NCBI GenBank assembly: GCA_028534125.1
Contig: CM052816.1
Coordinates: forward strand, 21,018,001-21,082,000
Length of the DNA: 64,000 nt
Source: Lama glama
Taxonomy: Eukaryota
Reading direction: 5' to 3'
Part shown: positions 31,263 through 31,402 of the stretch, in pieces
Layout: each line of letters starts with the position of its first letter
Position numbering within the stretch: position 1 is the first letter of the stretch
Notes under the pieces: model-generated
The model's input: only the letters and a program-made list of their open reading frames with translations
Databases searched by the model: none
Told to the model about the DNA's origin: nothing
Made by a program: the position numbers and the translations under genes

Positions 31263-31402
31263 CTGCATAGCTTTGTGATGCACTCACAGTCGTCCCGGCA
31301 AGAAGCTCCAATGGGCCTGAGGGAAACCCCTCTCCAAAATGGGGTCATTCTCCTTGGCCTTCTCTTTGCTGAACTCAGTTCTGGTATTGGGGAGCCACCT
31401 AC
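31263..31402 (-). CDS. LEAP2: LEAP2 exon 2 ([46 protein letters not shown])
   Basis: ccctacag acceptor, gtact donor; furin-type RPRR site and the mature N-terminus MTPFWR; 140 bp. Confidence 0.97.

Follow-up and report, generated by a model that had tools for sequence, protein, structure and literature searches.

What does a fifth cysteine do in a peptide hormone that reviews describe as near-invariant among mammals, with four cysteines (PMC11722547)? The question is raised by the gene for LEAP2, an antagonist of the ghrelin receptor GHSR, in a 64,000-nucleotide stretch of Lama glama DNA (the window), whose mature product carries a cysteine at residue 21.

The gene is LEAP2, as a sequence-only reading of the window had named it: exon 2 matches the Pfam LEAP-2 family (PF07359) with 88.8 bits against a cut-off of 27 (E 2e-25), and the locus and exon structure fit. 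The window translation gives three exons with GT-AG introns, an open frame, a signal peptide, a pro-region and an RXXR cleavage site. All four candidate loci in this genome were scored and a single one matches, the window locus itself, making LEAP2 a single-copy gene. With mammalian LEAP2 in general (PF07359; human NMR structure 2L1Q) it shares the three-exon structure, a 77-residue precursor, the RXXR site, a 40-residue mature peptide and UQCRQ among the neighboring genes. The UcrQ, TGF-beta and Shroom ASD1 domains located in the window are those expected for the orthologous LEAP2 locus; by human synteny, we take the TGF-beta and Shroom ASD1 neighbors to be GDF9 and SHROOM1. Upstream of LEAP2, a 246-codon stop-free frame (32362-33099, minus strand) has no Pfam match and is probably non-coding.

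Table 1 Features of the LEAP2 locus in the window.
Feature	Position	Strand	Remarks
LEAP2 exon 1, coding part	31604..31660	-	Most of the signal peptide; equals residues 1-19 of the alpaca RefSeq; GT donor next
LEAP2 exon 2	31263..31402	-	PF07359 match; AG acceptor and GT donor intact; end of the signal peptide; pro-region, including the RXXR site; residues 1-28 of the mature peptide
Mature Met1 codon	31348-31346	-	In exon 2
Cys21 codon TGT	31286..31288	-	Precursor residue 58; fifth cysteine of mature LEAP2; plus strand reads ACA
Lys26 codon AAG	31271..31273	-	Mature LEAP2, from the exon 2 translation; Lys26 also in Camelus
LEAP2 exon 3, coding part	30906..30942	-	Mature residues 29-40 including Cys33, and the stop codon
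TATA-like box, putative	31708..31714	-	Upstream of LEAP2 exon 1; from sequence, function presumed
UcrQ-domain exon	37477-37629	-	Domain match
TGF-beta-domain exon	41534-42562	+	Domain match
Shroom ASD1-domain exon	63317-64000	+	Domain match

Cys21 is confirmed within this intact, single-copy, three-exon gene. All four canonical cysteines (17, 23, 28 and 33) are present, and their columns (C54, C60, C65 and C70) are invariant in the LEAP2 alignment. Against the human NMR chain 2L1Q, which has Ser21 and Arg26, the window differs at only these two sites across mature residues 1-28, with Cys21 and Lys26. The mature peptide therefore holds five cysteines, an odd number, and one is unpaired by count, as had been proposed. 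The receptor-binding N-terminal part is also unaltered, again in line with the sequence-only reading: mature residues 1-20 are identical to the human chain, including the GHSR-binding residues Thr2, Phe4, Trp5 and Arg6, reported as the key residues of LEAP2 (PMC8428150).

Comparison across camelids, which that reading had put forward as a check, finds Cys21 in the alpaca RefSeq and Ser21 in Camelus. The alpaca protein (XP_006212881.4) has both Cys21 and Lys26 and agrees with the three exon translations of the window at 76 of 77 residues. The sole difference is at pro-region position -3, Pro in the window (31355-31357, minus strand) and Ser in alpaca; this variant falls inside the RXXR cleavage site, and the motif is kept in both. 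Because an independent alpaca assembly carries Cys21, yet differs elsewhere, a one-off error is ruled out, and it is hardly credible that Cys21 reflects an assembly error or a variant private to one animal. Among 24 listed public sequencing runs, 14 contain every one of the 117 words sampled from the region, spread over seven studies and five coded organism labels; 11 of them are flagged as a possible source, which leaves three, from two studies. If the words were sampled at random, all 117 would fail to include the altered base with a probability of about 2.6%. Since the runs are listed in order of similarity, they inform on sharing rather than on fixation: animals with Ser21 would not appear in the list, which is a point in favor of a private variant, and it is possible that Cys21 segregates within Lamini. 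In RNA runs (X15-X17) the share of words present is 0.24-0.33, approximately the exon-only expectation and not taken as evidence of expression, and X18-X20 hold small shares. A 111-residue frame spanning exon 2, used as a protein query, retrieved no further Lamini LEAP2 records.

A single LEAP2 record covers the dromedary, the Bactrian camel and the wild camel. This Camelus sequence departs from the window at four of 77 residues, namely Ser21, Tyr9, Gln18 and one residue of the signal peptide, while Lys26 and the entire pro-region are the same. Across these records, Cys21 belongs to South American camelids and is absent from Camelus; we infer that it arose on the South American camelid branch and that Lys26 is older than the camelid split. 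Since much DNA has been exchanged between alpaca and llama (PMC7331169), the sharing of Cys21 between them need not be old; the same paper puts the split of Lama and Vicugna at 2-3 Mya. With Ser21 in the Camelus record, Cys21 is not a desert-camel trait; adaptation to desert fasting was rejected on this ground, and the suggested link to a fasting-adapted lineage falls with it. The three Camelus species have in common two mature-peptide changes of their own. Ser9Tyr (at a site corresponding to 31322-31324 of the window) lies within receptor-binding residues 1-12, and Tyr9 occurs in one of 245 LEAP2 records; Arg18Gln is likewise common to all three. This may be of greater relevance to GHSR binding than Cys21.

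The same 245 records (counted as records rather than species, isoforms included, after three more were dropped as unmatched or short) have Ser at position 21 in 237 cases, Tyr in three, Ala in two, and Thr, Leu and Cys in one each. Cys21 is rare, as had been claimed, and a wide occurrence among mammals is not seen. Mole-rats have Tyr, hare and pika have Ala and the hedgehog has Leu, which points to at least four separate mammalian changes at this position; the remaining non-Ser records are from a hummingbird and the alpaca. The mole-rats with Tyr21 include the naked and Damaraland species. A profile search gave 103 matches, of which 91 were new and form a set of distant relatives with paralogues included; here position 21 takes 12 residue types, with Tyr in 31 and Leu in 21, and Cys is not among them. 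Such a range implies that there is no steric constraint. The description of position 21 as near-invariant is not borne out, given that amniotes can also have Tyr, Ala, Leu or Thr there and distant relatives 12 residue types; judged by these alignments, the residue Cys21 is rare, yet position 21 is among the more permissive of the core. The change of Arg26 to Lys, which had been singled out together with Cys21, is present but unremarkable: Lys26 occurs in 10 of the 245 records, and its carriers include shrews, an elephant shrew, a marsupial, a beaver and a wood mouse. At position 18, a number of toothed whales show Arg18Trp, a change that a hamster (Phodopus) acquired independently.

LEAP2 usually has no extra cysteine in the mature peptide, although this is not a defining trait. 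The window departs from it. Among the 242 records whose four-cysteine core is complete and whose tail is short, five also do so, from alpaca, Hyla sarda, Naja naja, eagle and emu. The alpaca is the only mammal among them and the only case inside the core. In Hyla sarda and Naja naja the extra cysteine comes right after Cys33; in eagle and emu (LEAP2 or LEAP2-like) it is at the C-terminus. We found no description of the camelid substitution in the open-access article texts searched.

Comparing change within the precursor, 32 other mammal pairs show 48 mature against 176 pre-pro differences. The camelid pair has three mature differences in either case, against two pre-pro differences with the RefSeq protein (one-sided Fisher p 0.07) or one with the window (p 0.04). 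The comparison is post hoc, uses hand-picked pairs and counts the prompting site among the three mature differences. Five other mammal pairs have at least three mature differences, each accompanied by more pre-pro change. At most, this excess hints that constraint on camelid LEAP2 is relaxed or altered.

GHSR is located in this genome as two open exons. Exon 2 is identical to the human PDB sequence at 100 of 100 aligned residues, and exon 1 (1149-1943 of the GHSR locus stretch) differs from human mainly in the N-terminal tail. Besides several N-terminal residues, the differences include Trp193Arg and Pro200Ala in extracellular loop 2. Asp99, Phe119, Phe279 and Phe312, reported as LEAP2 contacts on GHSR (PMC8428150), are kept. 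Neither exon encodes an extra cysteine relative to the human PDB sequence, and a new partner cysteine in GHSR was rejected, the cysteines being the same as in human. A genome search with PF04643 returned two loci, one with the ghrelin N-terminal exon and the other motilin-like, as judged from those exons only. In the inspected GHSR exons and the ghrelin N-terminal exon, neither co-evolution nor loss of the axis is seen.

The core of LEAP2 is described as a 3-10 helix and a beta-hairpin (PMC11722547). Our AlphaFold2 model of the precursor has a mean pLDDT of 61 and a pTM of 0.25, with values of approximately 54-61 around Cys21, and predicts with low confidence a helix at precursor residues 57-61 (mature 20-24). 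Compared with known structures, the model gave no Foldseek matches and a single VIA-align match (Z 2.1) to an unrelated chain. Because even 2L1Q was not recovered, the model cannot place Cys21. A homodimer prediction, made without the alignment and without folded controls, scored 0.00 in two runs and points neither way. The variability of the site, taken together with the low-confidence model (pLDDT 61, pTM 0.25), suggests that Cys21 may be solvent-exposed. It would be expected to face outward, since residues 21 and 23 diverge in a helix and Cys23 would be bonded to Cys33.

We consider it probable that Cys21 is a tolerated change at an exposed position, with the native disulfides kept, the thiol probably capped and antagonism retained. 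The precursor would fold with the usual 17-28 and 23-33 disulfides, and Cys21 would sit in a short helix at approximately residues 20-24, directed away from Cys23 and towards solvent. Flanked by Asp19, Asp20 and Glu22, its thiol would probably be of low reactivity; in the ER or in plasma it would be free, or capped by cysteine or glutathione, and a minor fraction of the peptide might be dimeric or albumin-bound. Antagonism would be largely unchanged because binding resides in residues 1-14, away from Cys21. LEAP2(1-14), which has no disulfides, binds GHSR with a Ki of 3.66 nM against 1.26 nM, so the disulfides are dispensable for receptor binding, and with a fluorophore on Cys17 of LEAP2(1-17) the Ki is still 3.9 nM (PMC8865914). 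A single transversion, C to G, would have produced the substitution once the lineage had separated from Camelus, and drift under weak selection would have followed. Leap2 knockout mice have mild phenotypes, and none on long-term chow (PMC8452786); selection on a peripheral LEAP2 residue can therefore be weak.

Tolerance agrees with the variability of position 21 in both close and distant relatives, with the fifth cysteine in four other complete records, and with an intact GHSR that lacks a matching change while Thr2, Phe4, Trp5 and Arg6 are intact in the hormone. Several observations count against it. Cys21 occurs in none of the 91 distant relatives although 31 have Tyr, one transition away, and this absence is therefore a hint of selection against a thiol at position 21. 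The four other five-cysteine records place the extra residue after Cys33, outside the core, and camelid mature LEAP2 has changed more than expected (one-sided p 0.04-0.07, post hoc). Moreover, an added cysteine has altered other secreted peptides. R25C PTH dimerizes inside and outside cells, with altered signaling (bioRxiv 10.1101/2024.03.13.584815), and the five-cysteine mouse peptide Defr1 is a covalent dimer whose activity depends on the dimer (PMC2883079). Both are, like LEAP2 of the window, secreted peptides with an unpaired cysteine. Their sequences are unrelated to it, however; in PTH no native disulfides would compete with the added cysteine, a canonical cysteine is missing from Defr1 whereas LEAP2 gained one, and their dimers were shown experimentally whereas a LEAP2 dimer is hypothetical.

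By these precedents and its odd cysteine count, Cys21 might couple LEAP2 to a second LEAP2 molecule in the ER or to albumin in plasma, and the product could be an antagonist that lasts longer or is bivalent, or a more potent antimicrobial. We regard such a gain as unlikely. The N-terminus would remain free to bind, the half-life of LEAP2 is approximately 15 min, so that conjugation could matter (PMC8428150), and the weak excess of camelid mature-peptide change is in its favor. Yet Asp19, Asp20 and Glu22 should lower the reactivity of the thiol and repel one another in a 21-21 dimer, and no co-change in GHSR is seen. For a dilute hormone in cystine-rich plasma, capping by small thiols is favored, which also counts against a gain. 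Desert camels do without Cys21, and a stronger antagonist would oppose the fasting response: LEAP2 falls on fasting (PMC8452786), so a longer-lived antagonist would be expected to work against fasting tolerance. It is quite unlikely that Cys21 instead competes with Cys17 or Cys23, respectively four and two residues away, in oxidative folding, leading to scrambling, retention in the ER or accelerated proteolysis. Less stable LEAP2 would then circulate, ghrelin signaling would be less restrained, and the allele would be kept by relaxed constraint in camelids. A partial loss would have parallels in other disulfide hormones, among them proinsulin, in which an added cysteine causes misfolding. In its favor, too, are the changes that Camelus has of its own (Tyr9 and Gln18) and the raised ratio of mature to pre-pro change, although that ratio comes from a post hoc test with a borderline result. 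The disulfide core may stabilize LEAP2 in plasma (PMC8428150), and the knockout, besides being mild, raises ghrelin sensitivity (PMC8452786). Against a partial loss, the gene is intact along with its splice sites, the cleavage site and the four canonical cysteines, the first 20 mature residues match the human sequence, and receptor binding needs no disulfides (PMC8865914). For a fish LEAP2, the linear form is more bactericidal than the oxidized one (PMC11149183), and scrambling therefore need not lower antimicrobial activity.

A covalent antagonist, in which the N-terminus docks and Cys21 forms a disulfide with GHSR Cys304 so that the block is slow to reverse, is very unlikely. Cys304 (7.34) is extracellular and is labeled by maleimide in purified receptor after reduction (PMC8225672), it is present in the GHSR of this genome, and LEAP2 already leaves the receptor slowly (PMC11997273). 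However, the proposal has no geometric support, a PDB search with LEAP2 exon 2 having given only 2L1Q and no GHSR complex; Cys304 is the same in human and hence carries no co-evolution signal, and no reaction is expected of a thiol that is capped or poorly reactive. Metal binding by the new CxC motif, also raised in the sequence-only reading, was rejected by reasoning: Cys23 is a conserved disulfide partner, and only one thiol would be free if both native disulfides form.

Cys21 is best described as a lineage-specific variant of a known hormone, already in RefSeq and apparently unremarked, that is probably tolerated. If the change is neutral, position 21 tolerates a thiol and would offer a conjugation point for longer-acting analogues; it would also matter for LEAP2 assays in alpacas and llamas. 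That the LEAP2 of South American camelids circulates covalently, as a Cys21 homodimer or an albumin adduct, or is tethered to GHSR Cys304, appears doubtful. Were it true, this would be the only known mammalian LEAP2 to circulate in such a form, a natural long-acting ghrelin-receptor blocker and a template for lengthening the hormone's 15-minute half-life. If the thiol is used, South American camelids would make an appetite hormone that naturally exists in covalent form.
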